From: a bacterium
GTDB taxonomy: Bacteria; Patescibacteriota; Minisyncoccia; JACQLN01
Reading direction: 5' to 3'
Assembly (NCBI GenBank): GCA_030697795.1
Contig: JAUYOV010000007.1
Coordinates: forward strand, 73,810 to 137,809
DNA length: 64,000 bases
Part shown: positions 2,426 through 56,858 of the stretch, piece by piece
How positions within the stretch are numbered: the stretch's first letter is position 1
Layout of the letters: each line of letters starts with the position of its first letter
The notes under the pieces: model-generated
The model's database searches: none
Told to the model about the DNA's origin: nothing
What the model saw: only the letters and a program-made list of their open reading frames with translations
Position numbers and translations under genes: made by a program

Positions 2426-3157
2426 ATGGCAGGCGAGCGAAGACCCAGACGAGAAGAGTTTAAATCTACGCCTTCTCAACCCGTAACCGTAACAGACGTT
2501 CGGCTTGAACAAGTTGGGCGTTCTGGAGACAGGTTAAAAGGACGTATCGCGGCCACCGCGAAGAAGGGTGGCCAGCCATGGTCTGGAGCGGATATAAGTT
2601 TCAAAGTCGGCGGAGTGCAGACGCCAAACTCACCATTGCAAAGTGGTGATGATGGTACTGCCAACGACGATTTTGATATTCCGCTTGATCCTGCCACAAG
2701 CAGGGTTCTCATTGAGGCTTGGTTTACAGGATCAAATCCAGCAAGAAAGTTTCTGGATATTGCCACAGCAACGAAACCTTCAGCACCAAAGAAAATAGAT
2801 AAGCTGGCGGTTAATGCTACGGGCAATAAGAATGGTCAGTGGGTTGTGTCTGTTATGGCCTCAACTCAAGACAACCAACCCGTTGAAGGAGTTGAAGTAA
2901 TTTTTCTTTACAATGGTGAATCGAAACCTGAAACTCTGACTAAAGGCGTGGCCTCGCATACAATCTTGGTAACAGGAAAATCTTGCGAGGTAGTTGTGCA
3001 AGCACCGGGCATAGAGCCAAAAACTCTGCGCCTGGCGGGACCAAAAGAAAAAATTAAAGTCCCGCCTGTTCCAGAAGAAGTAAAAACATGGTGGCAGAAA
3101 ACCAAAGCCGCGTGGAACATGGCAGCTGAAGACTCAAAAAAAGAAAAGGAGAGATAA
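2426..3157 (+). CDS. Hypothetical protein, first gene of GC-rich 3-gene operon
   Basis: 243 aa, no TM. Strong RBS taaggagg 6 nt upstream. Local GC about 50% versus about 35% for surroundings. Confidence 0.5.
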   Translation: MAGERRPRREEFKSTPSQPVTVTDVRLEQVGRSGDRLKGRIAATAKKGGQPWSGADISFKVGGVQTPNSPLQSGDDGTANDDFDIPLDPATSRVLIEAWFTGSNPARKFLDIATATKPSAPKKIDKLAVNATGNKNGQWVVSVMASTQDNQPVEGVEVIFLYNGESKPETLTKGVASHTILVTGKSCEVVVQAPGIEPKTLRLAGPKEKIKVPPVPEEVKTWWQKTKAAWNMAAEDSKKEKER

Positions 3158-3158
3158 A

Positions 3159-3689
3159 ATGTTTAGATTCGTTTACCTTCTGCGTCGGAGCAACAACTTC
3201 CGACTGGTAATGTTGTGGCTGTTGGTTGTGATTCATTGGATCATCAACCATACAATCCTTTCCACTACCGCATCAAAGTTTTCTCACCTTTCGGATATAC
3301 GGCAACGCCATATGAATTTTTATGATATTGGCGATGCCAAAACCGATAATGAAATCGCTGATCTGGGGTCACAGTTTCCTTGGACAGAGCTCAAAGCAAA
3401 CTGGCTCCACACCTCGGAACAAATCTGGTTGCTCCTGCTGATAGGGGCGATTATATATATACCTATCGCCTTATGTGAAGAATGGGGCCGAGCATGGACA
3501 GTTGCCCGCGCTAAAAAAGAAGCATGGGTGAATTTACCGGATGATCCACTTCCAGCAATTACTGGAACAATAACTACCGCAGTAACTCCCAGACATAACC
3601 AGATACTCAAACAAGCCTATATTTTTACTAGAGAGTTCGTTACAGCTCTTATAGCCGAACTCCTTGGAGAAAGGATGATGATACGATGA
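3159..3689 (+). CDS. Hypothetical membrane protein (2 predicted TM)
   Basis: 176 aa. Start overlaps previous stop (taaAATG); translationally coupled. GC-rich. Confidence 0.45.
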   Translation: MFRFVYLLRRSNNFRLVMLWLLVVIHWIINHTILSTTASKFSHLSDIRQRHMNFYDIGDAKTDNEIADLGSQFPWTELKANWLHTSEQIWLLLLIGAIIYIPIALCEEWGRAWTVARAKKEAWVNLPDDPLPAITGTITTAVTPRHNQILKQAYIFTREFVTALIAELLGERMMIR

Positions 3690-5155: not shown

Positions 5156-5548
5156 ATGGAAAAAGATTTTGACAAATGGAACATTAAGAAAAAATCAGTC
5201 CACTATCACGGAGCTTCCTTATACTGTCATCCGAGAGAGGTCTGGTGGTGTTCCCTTGGTGTTAATGTTGGTTTTGAGCAGGATGGCACGGGTGAAAATT
5301 TCGATCGGCCAGTTGTAGTTATTCGCGGATTTAACGAATATATATTTTTTGGTGTAGCTCTTATTGGTAAAAATAAAAAAGGGAAATATTATTTTCCTGT
5401 TGGAAAAATTGAAGAAAGAGAAGCATCAGCAGTGCTTTCTCAAGTTAGAATCATCGATACTAAAAGGCTAATAAGGAAAATAACTACACTTGATGAGGAA
5501 CTATTTATAAAGTTAAATAACTCTCTCAAAGAGATACTTTTCGGCTAA
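5156..5548 (+). CDS. MazF/PemK/EndoA-family endoribonuclease toxin (no adjacent antitoxin seen)
   Basis: FEQDGTGENFDRPVVVIRGFN...SQVRIIDTKRLIRKITTLDEELFIKLNNSLKEIL parallels B. subtilis EndoA (SEQGGVRPVLVI...EQIRTIDKQRLTDKITHLDDEMM). Confidence 0.6.
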   Translation: MEKDFDKWNIKKKSVHYHGASLYCHPREVWWCSLGVNVGFEQDGTGENFDRPVVVIRGFNEYIFFGVALIGKNKKGKYYFPVGKIEEREASAVLSQVRIIDTKRLIRKITTLDEELFIKLNNSLKEILFG

Positions 5549-9127: not shown

Positions 9128-9260
9128 TAAAATATATTTTTAAATTTCCAATTTCTAATATCTAATTACTAATCAAATCCCAATGACTAATGAACAAATA
9201 ACTAAAAAACTTTCTGACATTAGGCGTTTAAGCATTAGACATTGATTAGAAATTGGTAAT
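9128..9260. repeat. Inverted-repeat intergenic element, TCTAAT-unit family (copy 1)
   Basis: Arms aatttccaatttctaatatctaattactaatcaa ... ttgattagaaattggtaatt are reverse complements of each other. Same architecture at 10631, 34508, 36560, 47428, 52253. Confidence 0.7.
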
Positions 9261-9336
9261 TGCTCGCCCTGCGAAGCTTTACTGTGTCCTTCCGAAGCCT
9301 CGTGCGAAGGAGGAGCGGAGTAGGGGAAATTAGGAA

Positions 9337-10630: not shown

Positions 10631-10760
10631 TTGGAAATTACTAATTACCAATTTCTAATTACTAATAAAACTTTAAATGACTAATGACTAAATACTTTTG
10701 GACATTGGGATTTTGGTATTAGACATTGATTAGAAATTAGGTATTAGATATTAGAAATTC
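10631..10760. repeat. Inverted-repeat intergenic element, TCTAAT-unit family (copy 2)
   Basis: ttggaaattactaattaccaatttctaattactaat ... attagacattgattagaaattaggtattagatattagaaatt. Confidence 0.7.
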
Positions 10761-11296: not shown

Positions 11297-11366
11297 CTAG
11301 CTTTTAGCTTTTAGCTTTTAGCTTTCTAGGGAATTTCCTAAAAAGCTGAGAAGCTAGAAAGCTATT

Positions 11367-14247: not shown

Positions 14248-14352
14248 CAATCTACGAATGTACACGAATTATACTAATGGCTTCACAAATTCGTTTTCTA
14301 TTCGCATTATTCGTTAAACTTATTCGTAGCATTCGCATAAATTCGTATATTG
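14248..14352. repeat. Inverted-repeat intergenic element, ATTCG/CGAAT-unit family
   Basis: ctacgaatgtacacgaatt...aaattcgttttctattcgcattattcgtt...cgtagcattcgcataaattcgtatattggc. Confidence 0.6.
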
Positions 14353-14359
14353 GCATAAA

Positions 14360-18197: not shown

Positions 18198-18305
18198 CAT
18201 CTTATATTCAGTGTGTTAGACTGAACAAGTTTTAAATTAAGTATCAAAAATAAAATATAAAAATTTAAGATTTTTTATATTTGATATTTAATCTTTTATT
18301 TTTTT

Positions 18306-20252: not shown

Positions 20253-20329
20253 GGGCGTGTAGCTCAATTGGTTAGAGCACAGAGCTTATACCTCTGCGGT
20301 TCTAGGTTCGAGTCCTAGCACGCCCACCA
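20253..20329 (+). tRNA. tRNA-Ile with anticodon TAT (UAU), CCA encoded
   Basis: GGGCGTGTAGCTCAATTGGTTAGAGCACAGAGCTTATACCTCTGCGGTTCTAGGTTCGAGTCCTAGCACGCCCACCA. Ile-like body (compare E. coli Ile GGGCCTGTAGCTCAG...). Anticodon loop CTTATAC. Confidence 0.75.
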
Positions 20330-21108: not shown

Positions 21109-21200
21109 ATTTTTGTCACCAAAGAAAAACTTGAAATCGTAAAAACTTAAGTTTTAATTTCGGAATATTTAACCAGACTACCAATACCAAACTCACAACT

Positions 21201-21230
21201 CTCATTTTCACGCTCGAGCGTGAAAATGAG
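21201..21230. repeat. 30-nt perfect palindrome ctcattttcacgCTCGAGcgtgaaaatgag (CTCGAG-palindrome family, copy 1)
   Basis: Read directly. Preceded by ccaata and followed by ggaaagtttaa, as is copy 2. Confidence 0.8.
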
Positions 21231-21366
21231 GAAAGTTTAAATCTAAATTAGTCCAATGTTGACTTATAAATTATGTTTTGTTATAAATCTTAAATCGGAA
21301 AAACCGATAATCCCTTAACAGGGAAATTGCAATAACTTAGTCCCTTAAAAGAAAGAGAGTGATACC

Positions 21367-21735: not shown

Positions 21736-21759
21736 TTTAATTAACAAAATCCAATAACT

Positions 21760-21789
21760 CTCATTTTCTCGCTCGAGCGGGAAAATGCG
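21760..21789. repeat. CTCGAG-palindrome family, copy 2 (ctcattttctcgCTCGAGcgggaaaatgcg)
   Basis: Read directly. Stem differs from copy 1 by compensatory changes. Confidence 0.75.
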
Positions 21790-21821
21790 GAAAGTTTAAG
21801 ACTGATAGACAAAATTAAATT

Positions 21822-22388: not shown

Positions 22389-22490
22389 TTTATATTTTTA
22401 TTTATCTTATTATATATAATATTTTTATATAAGATTATTTTATTTATACAACACTTTATACAATATTCTAACCTACTTCCGCTAGACAAT

Positions 22491-22520
22491 CTCATTTTCA
22501 AGCTCGAGCGACAAAATGAG
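22491..22520. repeat. CTCGAG-palindrome family, copy 3 (ctcattttcaagCTCGAGcgacaaaatgag, imperfect)
   Basis: Read directly. Confidence 0.7.
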
Positions 22521-22569
22521 AATAGTTAGAAACGGATGTTTTAATTAATTAGAGTATACACCATATTTT

Positions 22570-23163: not shown

Positions 23164-23201
23164 CAATCTCATAATCACGCTCGAGCGTGATTATGAGATT
23201 G
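23164..23201. repeat. CTCGAG-palindrome family, copy 4 (38-nt perfect palindrome caatctcataatcacgCTCGAGcgtgattatgagattg)
   Basis: Read directly. Confidence 0.8.
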
Positions 23202-30876: not shown

Positions 30877-30963
30877 AATCAAAAATTAAATAGTAAATAT
30901 TAAAAATACATATAAAAATATCAAATTTTGATTTTTTATATTTTATATTTTATTTTGTAAATC

Positions 30964-34225: not shown

Positions 34226-34507
34226 AGAAAAACTTAAAAATAAAACTCGCTTACCCCTTAGAGCAGTCAGAAGATTTTCAAAAAAAGATGAAATTTTATA
34301 CCAAATACTAATCGGATATTGACCTTTACTTAACTAATCTGGTTTAGATAACTATTCTAACCCCAAAATAGGTGGGTATTGGCCTAACAAGCTTACTTAA
34401 GCACAAAACCCTGGTGGGCAGGGTTGTAGGTAAATACTAGCTTTTTTGAGAAGTAAGGTCAATTAGGATATTCCACAGACTACAGCCAAAACACAAGGCT
34501 AGGAAAT

Positions 34508-34618
34508 GTCTAATTTCTAATATCTAATCAATGACTAATTCCAAAATGGCTAATTTTAAAATTTGATCATTAGGCATTAGGATTTGATTAGAAATTAGAA
34601 ATTGGTAATTAGAAATTT
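34508..34618. repeat. Inverted-repeat intergenic element, TCTAAT-unit family (copy 3)
   Basis: gtctaatttctaatatctaatcaatgactaatt ... ggatttgattagaaattagaaattggtaattagaaatt. Confidence 0.7.
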
Positions 34619-36554: not shown

Positions 36555-36559
36555 AAACA

Positions 36560-36682
36560 AATTTCTAATTACTAATATCTAATTTCTAATCAAATCCTAA
36601 GGCCTAATTATCAAACCTTAAAATAGACATTTTAGAATTAGACATTGATTAGATATTAGAAATTGGATATTAGATATTTCAA
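36560..36682. repeat. Inverted-repeat intergenic element, TCTAAT-unit family (copy 4, clearest example)
   Basis: Left arm aaatttctaattactaatatctaatttctaatcaa. Reverse complement of right arm aaatatctaatatccaatttctaatatctaatcaa. About 50-nt unique centre. Confidence 0.75.
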
Positions 36683-43400: not shown

Positions 43401-44087
43401 ATGAACAGCCAACAACTAACATTAGACCAAATAGAACAACTAAACCAAGTTTCGGACCCAGTGGCCCGAAGACGCTTTTCTGTTCTGTTTCAGTTGCCCC
43501 AAGACTTGCAAACTGCTTTTGAAAGCGAGCAAACCGAAAATAGCGTTTGGGATATTGCTAAGGTAAAATATGATTTAGTCGATAGCGACGTCAGCAAAGT
43601 TTCACGAATAATCGGCTTAATATTTTTGGGTGAACTGCCCATTAAAAACTTTATTGCCGAATTAAAAAATAAATTAAATGTAGATATTCAAAAAGCCCAA
43701 GCCATTGCTCAAGATATTAACCAAGCCATCTTCCAGCCGGTCAGAACAAGTTTGATGCAAGTGCATGGGATAACCTCTACCGAAAATCCGAAATCCTCCT
43801 CCTTCGCTAAAGCTACGAAGGACAAGCAAATACCCCTACTCCGCCCACCCTTCGCCAGAGGCTACGGCGTGGCACAGCAACCTGTTAAACTTACACCACC
43901 GGCCTATCAACCTAGTTACGATAATGCCCAAAAAAGAAGAGATGAGGTGTTAAGTAAAATTAGACAGCAACCCCCTCCAGCTAAGCCCGCCTCGTTTTAT
44001 TTTTCTCGCAATATAAGACCAAATAACCTGAAGAAAAGTAAAATGACGAAGAGAGTTAATAATAAGTACGATGGATTTTTTAGTTAA
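43401..44087 (+). CDS. Hypothetical protein (T4SS-like cluster); contains in-frame GC-rich palindromic motif
   Basis: 228 aa. Internal segment aaatcctcctccttcgctaaagctacgaagg (43794-43821) coding SSSFAKATKD, see findings. Confidence 0.45.
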   Translation: MNSQQLTLDQIEQLNQVSDPVARRRFSVLFQLPQDLQTAFESEQTENSVWDIAKVKYDLVDSDVSKVSRIIGLIFLGELPIKNFIAELKNKLNVDIQKAQAIAQDINQAIFQPVRTSLMQVHGITSTENPKSSSFAKATKDKQIPLLRPPFARGYGVAQQPVKLTPPAYQPSYDNAQKRRDEVLSKIRQQPPPAKPASFYFSRNIRPNNLKKSKMTKRVNNKYDGFFS

Positions 44088-44122
44088 CACACTAATATAT
44101 AAATGACAAATGAATCCAAAAA

Positions 44123-44155
44123 CCCTAAATCATAAATCCGAAACTCTAAACAAAC
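44123..44155. repeat. Left arm of inverted-repeat element carrying four-helix-bundle gene (CTAAAT-unit family)
   Basis: ccctaaatcataaatccgaaactctaaacaaac. Reverse complement resembles right arm at 44531-44575. Confidence 0.6.
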
Positions 44156-44159
44156 ACTA

Positions 44160-44519
44160 ATGAACCAAATTACAAACAAGAATAATTACGACCTAGAAGA
44201 AAGGACGTTAAAATTTGCCCAAAGAGTAAATGAATATGTCCGTAAGTTATCAAGGACAATAACTAACATAGAGAATGGCAAACAATTAGTGAGATCAGGT
44301 GGATCAGTAGGAGCAAACTATATAGAAGCTAACGAATCCCTTGGTAGAAAAGACTTTATGATGAGAATTAAGATATCCAAAAAAGAAACAAAAGAAAGTA
44401 GATACTGGCTAATACTAACAGAGCCGAATAAAGACAACCTACTTGAAAAAGAAAGTTTGATTAAGGAATCTACGGAGCTTATGAAAATATTTGGTTCAAT
44501 CCTAGAAAAATCAAAATAG
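44160..44519 (+). CDS. Four-helix-bundle protein (family often found in 23S rRNA intervening sequences)
   Basis: 119 aa. ...TLKFAQRVNEYVRKLSRTITNIENGKQLVRSGGSVGANYIEANESLGRKDFMMRIKISKKETKESRYWLILTE matches the four-helix-bundle (TIGR02436-type) signature (QLxRS..SIGANI.EA...S.KDF...I..KE..ET.YWL). Confidence 0.7.
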   Translation: MNQITNKNNYDLEERTLKFAQRVNEYVRKLSRTITNIENGKQLVRSGGSVGANYIEANESLGRKDFMMRIKISKKETKESRYWLILTEPNKDNLLEKESLIKESTELMKIFGSILEKSK

Positions 44520-44530
44520 GTTATTGGTAA

Positions 44531-44575
44531 ATTGTGATTTATAATTTGTTTAGGATTTAGATATTAGAATTTAGT
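44531..44575. repeat. Right arm of inverted-repeat element carrying four-helix-bundle gene
   Basis: aattgtgatttataatttgtttaggatttagatattagaatttag. Confidence 0.6.
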
Positions 44576-44591
44576 ATTTCACACACATATT

Positions 44592-44870
44592 ATGCAATTT
44601 CAGGTTCCACAATTTATAGAAATGGAAGATAAAATAATCGGCCCGTTAACCCTAAAGCAGTTTGGCTTTGTGGCGGTGGCCGGTGTACTTTGTTTTATAT
44701 TTTTTAGCACTCTTACCACCACTTTTGCGTTTATTCTTTCTTTCCCTGTGGCTTTAGCGGCTCTGGTTTTGGCTTTTGGCAAAATTAAGGGCCTACCAGC
44801 CTTAAAATATTTATCGTCGTTTATTAAATTTTCCTTAAAGCCACAATTATACTTGTGGAAGAAGAAATGA
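44592..44870 (+). CDS. PrgI-family / VirB3-like small membrane protein (precedes VirB4 as in Gram-positive T4SS)
   Basis: 92 aa. MQFQVPQFIEMEDKIIGPLTLKQFGFVAVAGVLCFIFF... fits the PrgI family N-terminal pattern (..P.FI..EDKI.GPLTL.Q) plus two TM helices. Confidence 0.55.
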   Translation: MQFQVPQFIEMEDKIIGPLTLKQFGFVAVAGVLCFIFFSTLTTTFAFILSFPVALAALVLAFGKIKGLPALKYLSSFIKFSLKPQLYLWKKK

Positions 44871-44892
44871 TAAACAATCAAATTATAAATAC

Positions 44893-44985
44893 TAAATCCG
44901 AAACTCTAAACAAACTCCAAATGCCAATTTACCAAATTAGAATTTGTGATTTAAATATTGTTTAGGATTTAGATATTAGAATTTA
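44893..44985. repeat. 'Empty' copy of the four-helix-bundle-carrying inverted-repeat element (left + right arms with about 25-nt gene remnant)
   Basis: ctaaatccgaaactctaaacaaac | tccaaATGccaatttaccaaattag | aatttgtgatttaaatattgtttaggatttagatattagaatttag. Arms near-identical to those at 44123 and 44531. Confidence 0.6.
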
Positions 44986-44991
44986 GAGATT

Positions 44992-45660
44992 ATGGCAAAT
45001 ACTTCTTCAACCCACCAACTTATAGAAACCAAAGAAATTAAAGATGGTCTTGTTGTTTTAAAAAATGGGGGATTAAGAGCTATTTTGATGGTATCTTCCA
45101 TAAACTTTGCTTTAAAATCCAGCGAAGAACAAGAAGCCATAATCGACCGCTTTCAGGGTTTTATAAATTCCATAGATTTTCCTGTTCAAATTTTGGTTCA
45201 ATCCAGAAAACTGGATATTTCTGAATATTTAAAATTTCTAAACGAAAGAATCGGCATACAAACCAACGAGCTCTTAAAAATACAGACTTCTGAATATATT
45301 AATTTTATACAAGAATTAATTAAGCTAACCAATGTTATGTCTAAGTTCTTTTATGTGATAATTCCCCTAAGTACGGTGGCCGTTCTAGCAACAGGGTTTT
45401 TTTCTAAGTTTTTTTCTAAAAACAAAAAAGGCGTTCAAGATCAAAAAGACTTAAACTTTGAAACACAAAAAAATACAATTCAACAAAGAGTAGACCAAGT
45501 TACCAGTTTGTTAAGTTCTATGGGTTTAAAAGCGATACCCTTAGAAAAAGAAGCTTTAATCGAGCTTTTGTATACATCGTATAACCCCGGCAGCGAAGTT
45601 AAGCAAAAGAATATGGAGGCCTTAATTGCCACAGGGGATGAAGCTAAAAAATCAGGATAA
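44992..45660 (+). CDS. virB4: VirB4/TrbE/PrgJ-like ATPase, N-terminal fragment (gene interrupted at A6 run)
   Basis: 222 aa. ...IKDGLVVLKNGGLRAILMVSSINFALKSSEEQEAIIDRFQGFINSIDFPVQILVQSRKLDISEYL is the typical VirB4 N-terminal domain. Confidence 0.75.
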   Translation: MANTSSTHQLIETKEIKDGLVVLKNGGLRAILMVSSINFALKSSEEQEAIIDRFQGFINSIDFPVQILVQSRKLDISEYLKFLNERIGIQTNELLKIQTSEYINFIQELIKLTNVMSKFFYVIIPLSTVAVLATGFFSKFFSKNKKGVQDQKDLNFETQKNTIQQRVDQVTSLLSSMGLKAIPLEKEALIELLYTSYNPGSEVKQKNMEALIATGDEAKKSG

Positions 45661-45665
45661 AATAT

Positions 45666-47426
45666 ATGGAACCGAAAAACCAACAAATCGCCTCGGCCGG
45701 CACCCTAGAAGATCTTTTAGCCCCGCCGGCTTTACAGGTCAATCCTTCTAATTTGCAGATAGGCGAGAAATTTTCTAGAACAATATTTGTGGCTAATTAC
45801 CCTAGATTTTTGAGCGTGGGCTGGTTTTCGCCTATTATTAACTTAGATAAAATTTTTGATGTTTCTTTATTTATTCAACCCTCCGAAACTGGTCCTGTTT
45901 TAAAAAAACTAACCAAAAAAACAGCGCAGATCGGCGCGCAGATGTCGGAAAAAGAAGAGGGGGGTTTTATACGCGATCCCATGCTAGAAACAGCTTACCA
46001 AGATTTAGAATCTTTGCGCGATAAACTGCAACAAGGCACTGAAAGGTTTTTTCGGGCCGGCTTATATCTTACTTTTTATGCTAGTTCCGTAAAAGAACTG
46101 GATGATGTTGAAAGCAGAGTAAATACGATATTAGAATCAAAATTAATATATTCTAAAGTTGCGGTGTTCCAGCAACAAGAAGGCTATACCTCTACCCTGC
46201 CTTTAAATTTAGATAAGCTTCAGGTTTATAATAGCTTAAACACTGGCCCGCTTTCTTCTTTCTTTCCTTTTGTTTCAGCCGATCTTACCTCCAACAAAGG
46301 TGTGCTTTATGGCATAAACAGGCACAATAACAGCCTTATACTTTTTGATAGATTCTCTTTAGAAAACGCCAACACGGTTGTTTTTGCTAAATCCGGTTCG
46401 GGCAAAAGCTATACTGTTAAATTAGAGGTTTTACGTTCCTTAATGCTAGGCACCGATGTAATAATTATAGACCCAGAAAGCGAGTATAAATACTTAAACG
46501 ATGTAGTGGGCGGAACTTTTGTAAATATTTCTTTAACTTCTGCTAACCATATAAATCCGTTTGATTTAACTATACCCAGCGAAGATGAAAGCCCAGCCGA
46601 AGTTTTAAAAGCTAATATTATAGAGCTGACCGGCTTATTAAAAGTAATGTTGGGCCAGTTAACGCCCGAAGAAGATTCAATTATAGACAAAGCCTTAACC
46701 GAAACCTATGCTTCGCGCGATATCAGCATAAATTCGGATTGGCGGGGCAAACAGGTACCTTTAATGGGCGACCTGCATACCGTATTAAAAAACATGCAGG
46801 GCGCGGAAAAATTAGCCATTCGCATAGAAAAATATGTGACAGGCACATTCTCTGGCTTTTTAAATCAACCCACCAATGTGGCCTTAAACAATAACTTAGT
46901 TGTTTTTTCTATAAGAGATCTGGAACCAGAACTTCGCCCAGTGGCTATGTATATTTTATTGCACTATGTTTGGAACTTAATAAGAGCGCAAAGAAAGAAA
47001 AGAATAATGGTGGTGGACGAGGCCTGGTGGATGATGCAACATCAAGAAGCCGGCGCGTTTTTATTTAGCATTGCCAAAAGATGCCGTAAATATTATTTGG
47101 GGCTTACCACTATAACCCAAGACGTGGAAGATTTTATGAAATCGCAATACGGCAAGCCCATTGTAACCAATTCCGCCCTGCAAATATTGCTAAAGCAATC
47201 GCCGGCGGCCATAGACACGGTGGCTCAAACATTTAATTTAACCGATGAAGAAAAGTTTTTACTTTTAGAGTCCAGCGTGGGCGAAGGCATATTTTTAGCC
47301 GGTTTAAAGCGCGCGGCTATAAAAGTGGTGGCTTCTTATACCGAAGATCAAGTTATTACATCCGACCCAGCGCAATTATTGGAAATAGAAGCGGCTAAGA
47401 AAGAACTAGCCGAAGCACAGAAATGA
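45666..47426 (+). CDS. virB4: VirB4/TrbE/PrgJ-like ATPase, C-terminal ATPase fragment
   Basis: 586 aa. Walker A FAKSGSGKS, Walker B/DEAW (IMVVDEAWWMM), and the conserved motifs of T4SS VirB4 ATPases. Confidence 0.85.
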   Translation: MEPKNQQIASAGTLEDLLAPPALQVNPSNLQIGEKFSRTIFVANYPRFLSVGWFSPIINLDKIFDVSLFIQPSETGPVLKKLTKKTAQIGAQMSEKEEGGFIRDPMLETAYQDLESLRDKLQQGTERFFRAGLYLTFYASSVKELDDVESRVNTILESKLIYSKVAVFQQQEGYTSTLPLNLDKLQVYNSLNTGPLSSFFPFVSADLTSNKGVLYGINRHNNSLILFDRFSLENANTVVFAKSGSGKSYTVKLEVLRSLMLGTDVIIIDPESEYKYLNDVVGGTFVNISLTSANHINPFDLTIPSEDESPAEVLKANIIELTGLLKVMLGQLTPEEDSIIDKALTETYASRDISINSDWRGKQVPLMGDLHTVLKNMQGAEKLAIRIEKYVTGTFSGFLNQPTNVALNNNLVVFSIRDLEPELRPVAMYILLHYVWNLIRAQRKKRIMVVDEAWWMMQHQEAGAFLFSIAKRCRKYYLGLTTITQDVEDFMKSQYGKPIVTNSALQILLKQSPAAIDTVAQTFNLTDEEKFLLLESSVGEGIFLAGLKRAAIKVVASYTEDQVITSDPAQLLEIEAAKKELAEAQK

Positions 47427-47427
47427 C

Positions 47428-47538
47428 AAATTCCTAATTTCTAATCAATTTCTAATGCTTAAATGCCTAATTTCAGAACTTAGCCATTAGACATTTTGGT
47501 TTGATTAGATATTAGAAATTAGATATTAGACATTTTAA
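47428..47538. repeat. Inverted-repeat intergenic element, TCTAAT-unit family (copy 5)
   Basis: caaattcctaatttctaatcaatttctaatgcttaaatgcctaatt ... gtttgattagatattagaaattagatattagacatttt. Confidence 0.7.
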
Positions 47539-50865: not shown

Positions 50866-50990
50866 TTCAAAGCACGAAATACGAAATTCGAAACAAATTC
50901 CAATGTTCAAAATCCCAAATCCAAAACCGTTTAGAATTTATAATTTGGTATTTAGATATTGTTTCGGATTTCGATATTGGGATTTCGTAT
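50866..50990. repeat. Inverted-repeat intergenic element, CGAAAT-unit family (copy 3)
   Basis: aaagcacgaaatacgaaattcgaaacaaattccaat ... attgtttcggatttcgatattgggatttcgtattt. Confidence 0.65.
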
Positions 50991-51446: not shown

Positions 51447-51541
51447 GAGTTTTCGCCAATATGACTAATCTAAACTAATATACCAATAGATTTAATTAGC
51501 TATATTCGCGTCAATTCGTATATTAGCTTTTATTGGCTATA
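51447..51541. repeat. Inverted-repeat intergenic element, ATTCG-unit family; contains 27-mer identical to 56824-56850
   Basis: tatattcgcgtcaattcgtatattagc at 51501-51527 is identical to 56824-56850. Confidence 0.7.
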
Positions 51542-52249: not shown

Positions 52250-52252
52250 TTT

Positions 52253-52352
52253 AATATCTAATGTCTAATTACTAATATCTAATCAATTTCTAATGTCTAA
52301 ATAGTCTTATCATTAGTCATTGGGATTTGATTAGAAATTAGATATTAGAAAT
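52253..52352. repeat. Inverted-repeat intergenic element, TCTAAT-unit family (copy 6), inside the rnpA-yidD-yidC operon
   Basis: atatctaatgtctaattactaatatctaatcaatttctaatgtctaaat ... gggatttgattagaaattagatattagaaattt. Confidence 0.7.
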
Positions 52353-52355
52353 TTG

Positions 52356-56085: not shown

Positions 56086-56196
56086 GGAGTAATCACTAAT
56101 ATACGAATATTAAACGAATATACAAATAATAAAGAATTAGATTCGTTATGCCTATTCGTATATTGAAATAGATTTGTATATTCGCGATTACTAAAT
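56086..56196. repeat. Inverted-repeat intergenic element, ATTCG-unit family
   Basis: gtaatcactaatatacgaatattaaacgaatatac ... ttcgtatattgaaatagatttgtatattcgcgattac. Confidence 0.65.
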
Positions 56197-56745: not shown

Positions 56746-56858
56746 TTTGTAGTGTTCGCCAATATAGCTAATCAAAGCTAATATAGCGAATCGCGTCTGA
56801 CGCTACGAATGAATTCTTATTAGTATATTCGCGTCAATTCGTATATTAGCGAAAAGTA
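56746..56858. repeat. Inverted-repeat intergenic element, ATTCG-unit family (shares exact 27-mer with 51501-51527)
   Basis: ...agtatattcgcgtcaattcgtatattagcgaaaag. Confidence 0.7.

Follow-up and report, generated by a model that had tools for sequence, protein, structure and literature searches.

A four-helix-bundle gene between inverted heptamer-repeat arms in a Patescibacteria-like type IV secretion operon: probably an intervening-sequence-type cassette lodged between two cistrons

A gene for a 119-aa four-helix-bundle (4HB) protein, flanked by arms of ~7-nt repeats, lies between two cistrons of a type IV secretion system (T4SS) operon in the DNA analysed here, a stretch of 64,000 nucleotides (64 kb; the window) with 38% GC whose source genome is Candidate Phyla Radiation (CPR)/Patescibacteria-like. 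We regard this feature as, in all probability, a selfish gene cassette of the intervening sequence (IVS) type, a kind of element known from rRNA genes, that sits between two cistrons instead of inside rRNA. The gene and its arms form a discrete, conserved, promoterless unit that recurs in many unrelated loci and phyla, co-oriented with its neighbours; the cassette has been gained, lost or replaced between near-identical operons; and both gene-less versions and a second cargo type (PDDEXK_3/GxxExxY) exist.

The putative unit consists of a left arm of ~7-nt repeats, the promoterless 4HB gene, and a right arm carrying the same repeats inverted, all on the plus strand. The left arm (44104-44159) is the array ..CTAAATC ATAAATC CGAAACT CTAAACA AAC, which ends 4 nt 5' of the ATG; the cargo gene (44160-44519, 360 bp) follows, its first ~8 codons (MNQITNKN) being encoded by the inner portion of the left arm; and the right arm (44520-44579) comprises an inner stem, GTTATTGGTAAATTGTGATTTATAA, and an outer heptamer array, TTTGTTTAGGATTTAGATATTAGAATTTAGTATTT. 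The upstream cistron encodes a 228-aa protein (p228) without a Pfam match (43401-44087), and its TAA stop at 44085-44087 marks the left insertion boundary; downstream lies a PrgI-family gene (44592-44870; PF12666, E 4.7e-13), orthologues of which are present in the related loci L001 and L101-L113 described below. The cassette fills the whole gap from the stop of the 228-aa gene to the prgI start, a gap that is one base long in the closest relative. The cargo protein matches PF05635 (23S_rRNA_IVP; E 1.3e-11, 45.1 bits against a curated cut-off of 33.8) and TIGR02436 ('four helix bundle protein'; E 3e-17, 62.8 bits against a cut-off of 24), and its gene is the sole PF05635-type gene within the window. 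It also matches PDB 2RLD (E 3e-12), an entry with five chains, and from this match and the literature (PMC4990558) the protein is predicted to adopt the 4HB fold and to assemble as a pentamer. Searches of PADLOC and PHROGs with the cargo protein gave no match.

On the far side of the PrgI-family gene, which thus stands between the two elements, is a copy without an open reading frame (ORF). Its left arm (44886-44915) is identical to 44126-44155 at 28 of 30 positions, its inner stem and loop (44916-44942, TCCAAATGCCAATTTACCAAATTAGAA) contain an ATG, and its right arm (44943-44986), ~93% identical to 44531-44574, stops 5 nt short of the TraC-like gene's ATG at 44992. The two arm pairs that had been proposed in a preliminary description of this DNA are present where it placed them: the left-arm 22-mer AAATCCGAAACTCTAAACAAAC occurs exactly at 44134 and 44894 and the right-arm 29-mer TTGTTTAGGATTTAGATATTAGAATTTAG exactly at 44546 and 44958, each pair being the sole matches in 64 kb at up to three mismatches, with a chance expectation of 0 in shuffled sequences. 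The direct repeats extend to ~30 nt on the left (28/30) and 46 nt on the right (91%), and the aligned arm pairs are 91-100% identical overall. The idea that the arms might be just a generic spacer repeat finds no support in this distribution, with exact arms at two sites only, though the window holds many related gene-less heptamer hairpins.

The same combination of gene and arms is found far beyond this operon. The cargo protein has at least ~8000 homologues, of which the best 120 are all at least 70% identical, and roughly half of those 120 lie on contigs shorter than 2 kb. When one genome of each GTDB species was scanned, more than 566 relatives were found; the best 80 are 56-85% identical and are hosted by Patescibacteria, Omnitrophota, Planctomycetota, Desulfobacterota, Ignavibacteria, Nitrospirota, Gammaproteobacteria and others. 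Members of the subfamily in unrelated contexts and phyla carry the same arms, as expected if the preliminary description of an arm-bounded unit is right: cargo genes 72-85% identical to that of the window lie between a Bro-N protein and a 1135-aa protein (P0010, locus L007), between RNase HII on the opposite strand and DnaE (P0055, L010), and between a pilin-like gene and a PilB/T2SSE ATPase (P0059, L011-L020), with the same arms in each of these differing contexts. Arm statistics were computed over 77 non-redundant loci. The left anchor C[TGC]AAA[CT]AA (..CTAAACAA) lies within 30 nt of the ATG in 58 of them (75%; background 0.45%), and the right anchor TT[GA]TTT[AGC]G (TTGTTTAG) within 110 nt past the stop in 64 (83%; background 2.1%); the common flanks read ..CTAAATCCGAAAT.CTAAAT.CTAAACAAAttc.a ATG upstream and TAA/TAG ..tttgg.a.tt..ATTTGTTTAG.ATTTAGATATTAG.ATTTAG downstream. 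Identity at a lag of 7 nt is 0.47 in both arms, against 0.23-0.37 at other lags except lag 14, and the heptamer type agrees between the two arms of a locus, CTAAA going with TTTAG (rho 0.74, p 2e-14) and CGAAA with TTTCG (rho 0.59-0.65); cross-types correlate negatively, and host GC does not explain the agreement. Neighbours are on the same strand in 65 of 72 cases upstream and 60 of 71 downstream, and the median spacers around the cargo genes are 49 nt (upstream) and 80 nt (downstream), so that the arms fill the spacer. A simple scan for a plus-strand sigma-70-like promoter in the arms found none. In 80 of 81 loci the cargo gene has a lower GC content than the flanking DNA (37% versus 46%).

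Orthologous T4SS operons show that the cassette comes and goes. A metagenome scan for VirB4 yielded 43 orthologous loci, which were mapped by tblastn, their spacers read, and a VirB4 tree built; the query was the region downstream of the ORF-less copy, namely the TraC-like 222-aa N-terminal part and the 586-aa VirB4 ATPase (44992-47426, plus strand). Two loci are jointly closest to the window, with VirB4 93% identical. One of these, L101, has neither element, the p228-PrgI junction reading TAA c ATG and the PrgI-TraC junction TAA t ATG; the other, L102, whose VirB4 is 98% identical to that of L101, has in the p228-PrgI spacer a different 4HB gene (38% identical to the window's) in CTAAT-type arms, and a PrgI-TraC spacer of 31 nt with no hairpin noted. 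More distant operons vary further. In L001 (VirB4 88-89% to the window) the window's cassette is present, its gene 85% identical, and an unrelated hairpin occupies the PrgI-TraC spacer. L104, at the same VirB4 distance (88-89%), has between p228 and PrgI a PF13366 PDDEXK_3 (GxxExxY) gene (E 2.5e-19) within ACGAAT/ATTCGT arms, and 3 nt between PrgI and TraC. L107 and L109 (VirB4 84% and 82%) carry a third 4HB subfamily with CAAATGA-type arms in the first spacer, and in the second a 113-nt ACGAAT/ATTCGT-type hairpin (L107) or 20 nt (L109). In L111, whose VirB4 is 97% identical to that of L107, an internally deleted remnant of a PDDEXK_3 gene lies within L104-type arms, followed at the second site by a 110-nt ACGAAT/ATTCGT-type hairpin. 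L108 (VirB4 84% to the window) has a 119-nt hairpin-like spacer without a gene at the first site and a 4HB gene at the second, where the window has its ORF-less copy. The VirB4-p133 spacer likewise is compact in some relatives and holds differing hairpin types in others.

The earlier suggestion of an arm-bounded cassette inserted into the T4SS operon is therefore borne out, with its presence, absence and replacement all represented and one relative having one-base spacers at both sites. The flanks of L101 and L102, both from Hainich groundwater samples, are ~99-100% identical up to the junction (alignment A2), so the cassette difference between them is recent. There, all three bases of the upstream gene's last serine codon are different (AGC at L101 3528-3540, TCA at L102 1842-1856), which hints that the cassette came or left with a few flanking bases through allele exchange and not by clean cut-and-paste. 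As a separate observation on these operons, VirB4 is split in the window into two ORFs, 44992-45660 (TraC-like, 222 aa) and 45666-47426 (586-aa ATPase), and the split is kept in every orthologous operon examined.

Comparison of the window with the syntenic L001 gives a dN/dS of 0.085 for the cargo gene (dS 0.95), with 67% identity at third positions; the arms are identical at 31 of 37 positions on the left (84%) and 55 of 61 on the right (90%). The low dN/dS, together with arms better conserved than third positions, indicates purifying selection on both the protein and the arms.

The preliminary description took the ORF-less copy for an empty or deleted version of the element that retains a remnant of the gene. 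A gene-less copy does adjoin the cassette, and its 28-nt centre does resemble the 5' end of the cargo gene (p ~0.009); the same centre resembles the reverse complement of the sequence just past the stop codon equally well (15/17, p ~0.0065), so that it is the inner hairpin stem and not necessarily a deletion scar. In every cassette the inner stem takes in the ATG and the first ~8 codons, and many gene-less hairpins elsewhere keep an ATG plus a few 4HB codons; the central ATG of the window copy may be a gene remnant, a reading possible on these data and not required by them. The arms of the ORF-less copy are 93-100% identical to those of the adjacent cassette, as compared with 84-90% between the cassette arms and their L001 orthologues, and the spacer in which it lies contains a different hairpin in L001 and none in L101. 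It is accordingly a lineage-specific derivative of the neighbouring cassette, which arose either by copying followed by loss of the ORF, in the manner of the internal deletions of miniature inverted-repeat transposable elements (MITEs), or by conversion of the arms of a pre-existing hairpin.

Gene-less hairpins of the cassette's arm family are common elsewhere, and the spacing of left and right anchors has two modes, ~50-100 nt and ~400-450 nt. One such hairpin is in the T2SSE-T2SSF spacer of L014, the sister strains of which have at that spacer a 113-aa 4HB cassette with different arms. All full-length elements encode either a 4HB or a PDDEXK_3 protein and nothing else. The L102 cassette provides a link back to the window: its arms match at least seven gene-less CTAAT-family hairpins there (for example 28/28 at 52354-52327, and another at 35/38), and these hairpins therefore relate to the gene-carrying cassette of the sister genome as MITEs do to a full-length element. 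A tandem arrangement was also seen in a different phylum-level lineage: in L053 (Falkowbacteria, 774-900) a 4HB gene is followed by a second left arm and a 4HB start of ATG plus 8 codons fused to a right arm, so that a full cassette and a gene-less hairpin stand one behind the other. In the same T2SSE/PilB operons of L013 and L014 the T2SSE/PilB stop codon is spanned by short perfect palindromes (L013 ~3376-3400, AATTCGAGAATAAATTCTCGAATT; L014 ~3075-3100, GCGGGTTATTCGGGAATAACCCGC); the two sequences differ, which suggests that it is the structure at the end of the gene that is conserved.

Among known systems the nearest is the IVS with an S23p/4HB ORF in the 23S rRNA genes of Leptospira, Coxiella burnetii, Xanthomonas and others. 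In the Coxiella IVS, a stem formed by a 28-bp terminal inverted repeat and tandem heptameric repeats just 5' of the S23p ATG have been described, as has excision by RNase III, and the ORF is reported to be decaying (PMC4990558); in CPR rRNA genes, 23S_rRNA_IVP ORFs and ORF-less insertions occur at the same sites (bioRxiv 10.1101/2024.02.27.582315). The window element shares with these IVSs a PF05635 cargo, an ORF between inverted arms, tandem heptamers directly 5' of the ATG and the lack of a good Shine-Dalgarno sequence; a stem that encloses the ORF, and co-transcription with the host gene, would be further points in common. IVSs have long been suspected of being selfish or mobile, and PMC4990558 reviews proposals that they are left over from transposition or are themselves mobile. 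The differences lie in location, in selection and in what is known of processing. The window element occupies an intercistronic spacer of a protein-coding operon, unlike the IVSs, which sit in an rRNA helix, and no rRNA was found in the window; its protein is under the strong purifying selection described above, whereas the Coxiella ORF is decaying; and RNase III excision, which is known for rRNA IVSs, would apply to the window cassette by analogy.

On this precedent (PMC4990558) and on the anatomy of the element, read-through of the operon would transcribe the cassette, and in well-preserved copies the arms may form a long paired stem in which the AUG, too, is hidden. RNase III would then cut the arm stem as it does in rRNA IVSs, freeing the cargo mRNA and leaving the neighbouring cistrons to survive intact as separate mRNAs; release of this kind with intact neighbours would account for the element being tolerated in two settings only, the loops of rRNA and the spacers between cistrons. 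Such a stem is predicted in the L071 cassette: folded over its full 511 nt, it forms a panhandle (z -5.1) whose outer stem is 35 bp long and free of mismatches and whose second stem holds the AUG. The first codons, often ATG ACC GAA ATT CAA AAT TCA AAA, are heptamer-like and pair with sequence just 3' of the stop, and the duplex between the arms beats dinucleotide shuffles at z < -2 in 58 of 77 loci and at z < -3 in 49.

A number of results weigh against reading the window element as a processed, mobile IVS-type cassette, and several concern pairing. The arms, called inverted repeats in the preliminary description, are indeed inverted, but they are only ~71% complementary (24/35 Watson-Crick pairs in the anchored register), the occupied copy forms no panhandle in the plus-strand RNA fold (z -0.46), and the arm duplex is weak as plus-strand RNA (z -0.76); the complementarity of the window copy is partly decayed. 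In the ORF-less copy, folding is significant for DNA (z -3.2 and -3.0) and for minus-strand RNA (z -3.8), with plus-strand RNA reaching only z -1.4. Across loci, G-U-compatible mismatches on the transcribed strand are not in excess (111 versus 134, p 0.16) and duplex energy has no strand asymmetry (44/77 loci, p 0.16), so that any role at the RNA level is putative, and the arms could instead act as DNA or as protein-binding repeats. Complementarity between a locus's own arms, 23.9 of 35 positions, barely exceeds the 22.2 found between arms of different loci in an anchored ungapped comparison whose register is blurred by heptamer indels, and much of the apparent pairing thus reflects a shared family consensus. 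Other results concern spread. A possible 8-bp duplication of the PrgI start, ATGCAAnT at both junctions, occurs in L102 and L104; no consistent target-site duplication accompanies the element, with none in L001 and L107 and only a loose CACAC..ATAT similarity in the window. The scanned neighbouring genes include no transposase or recombinase, and three abundant exact protein sequences are each confined to one genomic context, with no identical multi-site copies among them. The claim that this locus gives direct evidence of how such genes move consequently fails; mobility is evident on evolutionary, not population, time scales. Among 12 loci with long non-coding flanks, moreover, an Rfam scan found no cassette inside an rRNA gene, the sole rRNA match being a 217-nt 16S 3' end ~3.7 kb upstream in L011, and two scans of viral contigs, one with the single protein and one with alignment A4, found no relative.

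A possibility, in our judgement unlikely, is that the two elements are a classical DNA transposon and its MITE, the arms being terminal inverted repeats for a transposase encoded elsewhere, the occupied copy a cargo-carrying element and the empty copy the MITE. Inverted arms, gene-less copies at several intergenic sites, clean presence or absence between 98%-identical operons, and ATGCAAnT at both junctions in L102 and L104 would all be expected of such a pair. Against it, the arms are long (35-60 nt), imperfect heptamer arrays and not short defined termini, the possible duplication is missing from the window, L001 and L107, no transposase lies near the element in the window, the cargoes known, two in number, are a 4-helix bundle and a small PD-(D/E)XK protein, and the three exact proteins have no identical copies at different sites.

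Established gene-less and gene-bracketing repeat families are comparable in some respects. The Correia/NEMIS elements of Neisseria and the ERIC/IRU elements of enterobacteria are gene-less, imperfect-palindrome MITEs that lie between co-transcribed genes in many copies with presence/absence differences; their hairpins have been proposed or shown to be processed as RNA, and they have defined termini, with a TA target duplication in the case of Correia. The gene-less copies of the window type behave similarly, as hairpin MITEs in operon spacers, but their arms are built of heptamers in series, a conserved protein gene is present in the full-length versions, and members of the family occur in different phyla. 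In REPtrons, a RAYT gene, encoding an HUH (IS200/IS605-type) nuclease, is flanked by inverted repetitive extragenic palindromes (REPs), and REP/BIME copies are dispersed between genes. A small gene bracketed by inverted repeat copies that also occur gene-less at many intergenic sites is common to both systems; the RAYT nuclease cleaves DNA by a known chemistry, whereas the cargo here is a 119-aa helical bundle without a known catalytic motif, and REPs are short palindromes, not heptamer arrays.

The spacers of the window itself are relevant to a further explanation, namely that the 4HB gene is a resident gene with conserved regulatory untranslated regions, its arms being generic intercistronic elements for RNA processing or stability and the second pair having arisen by local duplication or gene conversion. 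Long, AT-rich, imperfect hairpins occur in many intergenic spacers of the window, and their arms consist of serial units of ~7 nt. The arms of the cassette thus belong to a class of spacer hairpins, with their specific sequence confined to two sites. A third, diverged ORF-less hairpin of the cassette's arm family (CGAAAC.. / ..GTTTCGGATTTCGATATTGGGATTT) was found at 50880-50990, and hairpins related to it sit in the VirB4-p133 spacer of L106 and L132. The sister arm family CTAAT../..ATTAG is represented by an ORF-less hairpin in the window's own VirB4-p133 spacer (47430-47536), which matches the arms of the L102 cassette, and, from folds and arm matches, by further hairpins at 9140-9262, 10636-10756, 34498-34604, 36558-36682 and 52252-52355; the RNA folds of this family have z between -2.7 and -7.9. 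Copy numbers in 64 kb are therefore two of the cassette arm set plus one diverged, and at least six of the CTAAT family. Heptamer hairpins of the ACGAAT../..ATTCGT type lie at 14266-14359, 51447-51541, 56086-56196 and 56746-56858 and adjoin jag, yidC, yebC and ruvC; the first matches the arms of the PDDEXK_3 cassette in L104 and of the remnant in L111, and the other three resemble them by eye. The window also has other 7-nt-periodic spacer arrays, at 932-980, 11297-11366, 18198-18305 and 30877-30963, which comprise (GATATTT)n beside tRNA-Arg, a (TAGCTTT)n hairpin and A/T-only hairpins, and the spacer repeats of the source genome seem generally to be built on a 7-nt unit.

That heptamer hairpins adjoin so many housekeeping genes of the window (yidC, jag, yebC, ruvC, uvrD, ksgA) is what a resident gene with generic spacer elements would predict, as are the syntenic, ~85% identical cassette of L001, which must have been stable over some evolutionary time, and the single context of each exact protein. 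We nevertheless find this explanation quite improbable. The specific arms accompany the gene subfamily into unrelated operons and phyla while the neighbouring genes change; the closest relative has one-base spacers and no hairpin; the arm family switches together with the cargo at one site, CTAAAT, CTAAT and CAAATGA arms going with different 4HB subfamilies and ACGAAT arms with PDDEXK_3; and the cargo is AT-richer than its host in 80 of 81 loci.

The pairing results leave room for a view that dispenses with stems, in which the heptamer arrays are iteron-like DNA or RNA sites bound by a pentameric, Avd-like 4HB protein, and inversion and matching type follow from shared recognition and not from pairing. 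The strict 7-nt periodicity of both arms, the conserved non-complementary motifs (TCCGAAA in the left arm, TAGATATTAG in the right), own-arm pairing hardly above the cross-locus level and the lack of strand asymmetry accord with it, as do the inclusion in PF05635 of Avd, a nucleic-acid-associated protein of diversity-generating retroelements (DGRs; PMC10053308), and the reported homopentamer of S23p (cited in PMC4990558). PDDEXK_3 cassettes, however, share the heptamer-arm architecture with a structurally unrelated cargo, and some copies have perfect 35-bp complementarity that binding sites alone would not need, and we consider binding without pairing very unlikely.

Scarcely credible is a DGR accessory gene (Avd) or an integron-type gene cassette: PF05635 is the Avd family, with a homologous 4HB fold (cd16375), and a DGR survey notes the resemblance (PMC10053308), and the cassettes are, like those of integrons, promoterless, co-oriented and associated with an imperfect inverted repeat, but the arms flank the ORF on both sides where an integron cassette has a single 3' attC, the cassettes stand singly inside housekeeping operons and are not arrayed, and no intI is nearby. 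At this locus both are effectively ruled out, no reverse transcriptase, integrase, or template or variable repeat being present within ~10 kb, where the only direct repeats found are the arms. The genes within that distance are T4SS components, among them the operon that holds the 4HB gene, and housekeeping genes; the T4SS genes of the window adjoin rnpA-yidC-jag-dnaA-dnaN.

Some features noted in passing concern toxin genes and other repeats. In Sungbacteria-like loci (L144-L153, gene at ~2936-3450) a 4HB cassette lies directly 5' of a PemK/MazF toxin gene; the window has a PemK-like gene at 5156-5548, which does not adjoin the cassette. A ~32-bp palindrome, CTCATTTTCACGCTCGAGCGTGAAAATGAG, with centre CTCGAG, occurs four times in the window (21200-21231, 21759-21790, 22490-22521 and 23167-23198) in successive spacers beside small genes, one copy having a compensatory change of TTTT/AAAA to TAAT/ATTA; these palindromes could be an operator family or another repeat element. 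A tRNA-Ile gene with a TAT (UAU) anticodon, an uncommon bacterial way of reading AUA, lies at 20253-20329.

Beyond the identification of the window element as a probable IVS-type cassette, we put forward, tentatively and with considerable doubt, a wider proposal. PF05635 and PF13366 genes with heptamer inverted arms would constitute an unrecognised class of transposase-less mobile cassettes that crosses bacterial phyla and inserts where RNA can be cut without religation, in intercistronic spacers and rRNA loops. The cargo would recognise its own arms and aid spread or maintenance, rRNA IVSs would be one special landing site, and the heptamer hairpins so common in CPR operons would be gene-less progeny. 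In the literature searched, which covered few subscription journals, we found no description of an intercistronic heptamer-armed cassette, of its conservation across phyla or of gene-less progeny; the related accounts that came to light were those already cited on the Coxiella IVS, on insertions in CPR rRNA genes and on DGRs.

The origin of rRNA IVSs and the role of their conserved S23p/4HB ORF have been open since the early 1990s. The locus described here and its relatives supply evidence that was unavailable from rRNA: nearly identical operons of which some have the element and others lack it, several cargoes at one site, gene-less derivatives, and an architecture conserved across phyla. The cassette interpretation would account for a good part of the hairpins with 7-nt periodicity between the operon genes of small CPR genomes, for the abundance of PF05635 genes, and for the many close homologues that sit on very short contigs. 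Together, these results suggest that the IVSs known from rRNA represent a single instance of a far broader kind of selfish cassette, one not described before in the literature searched.

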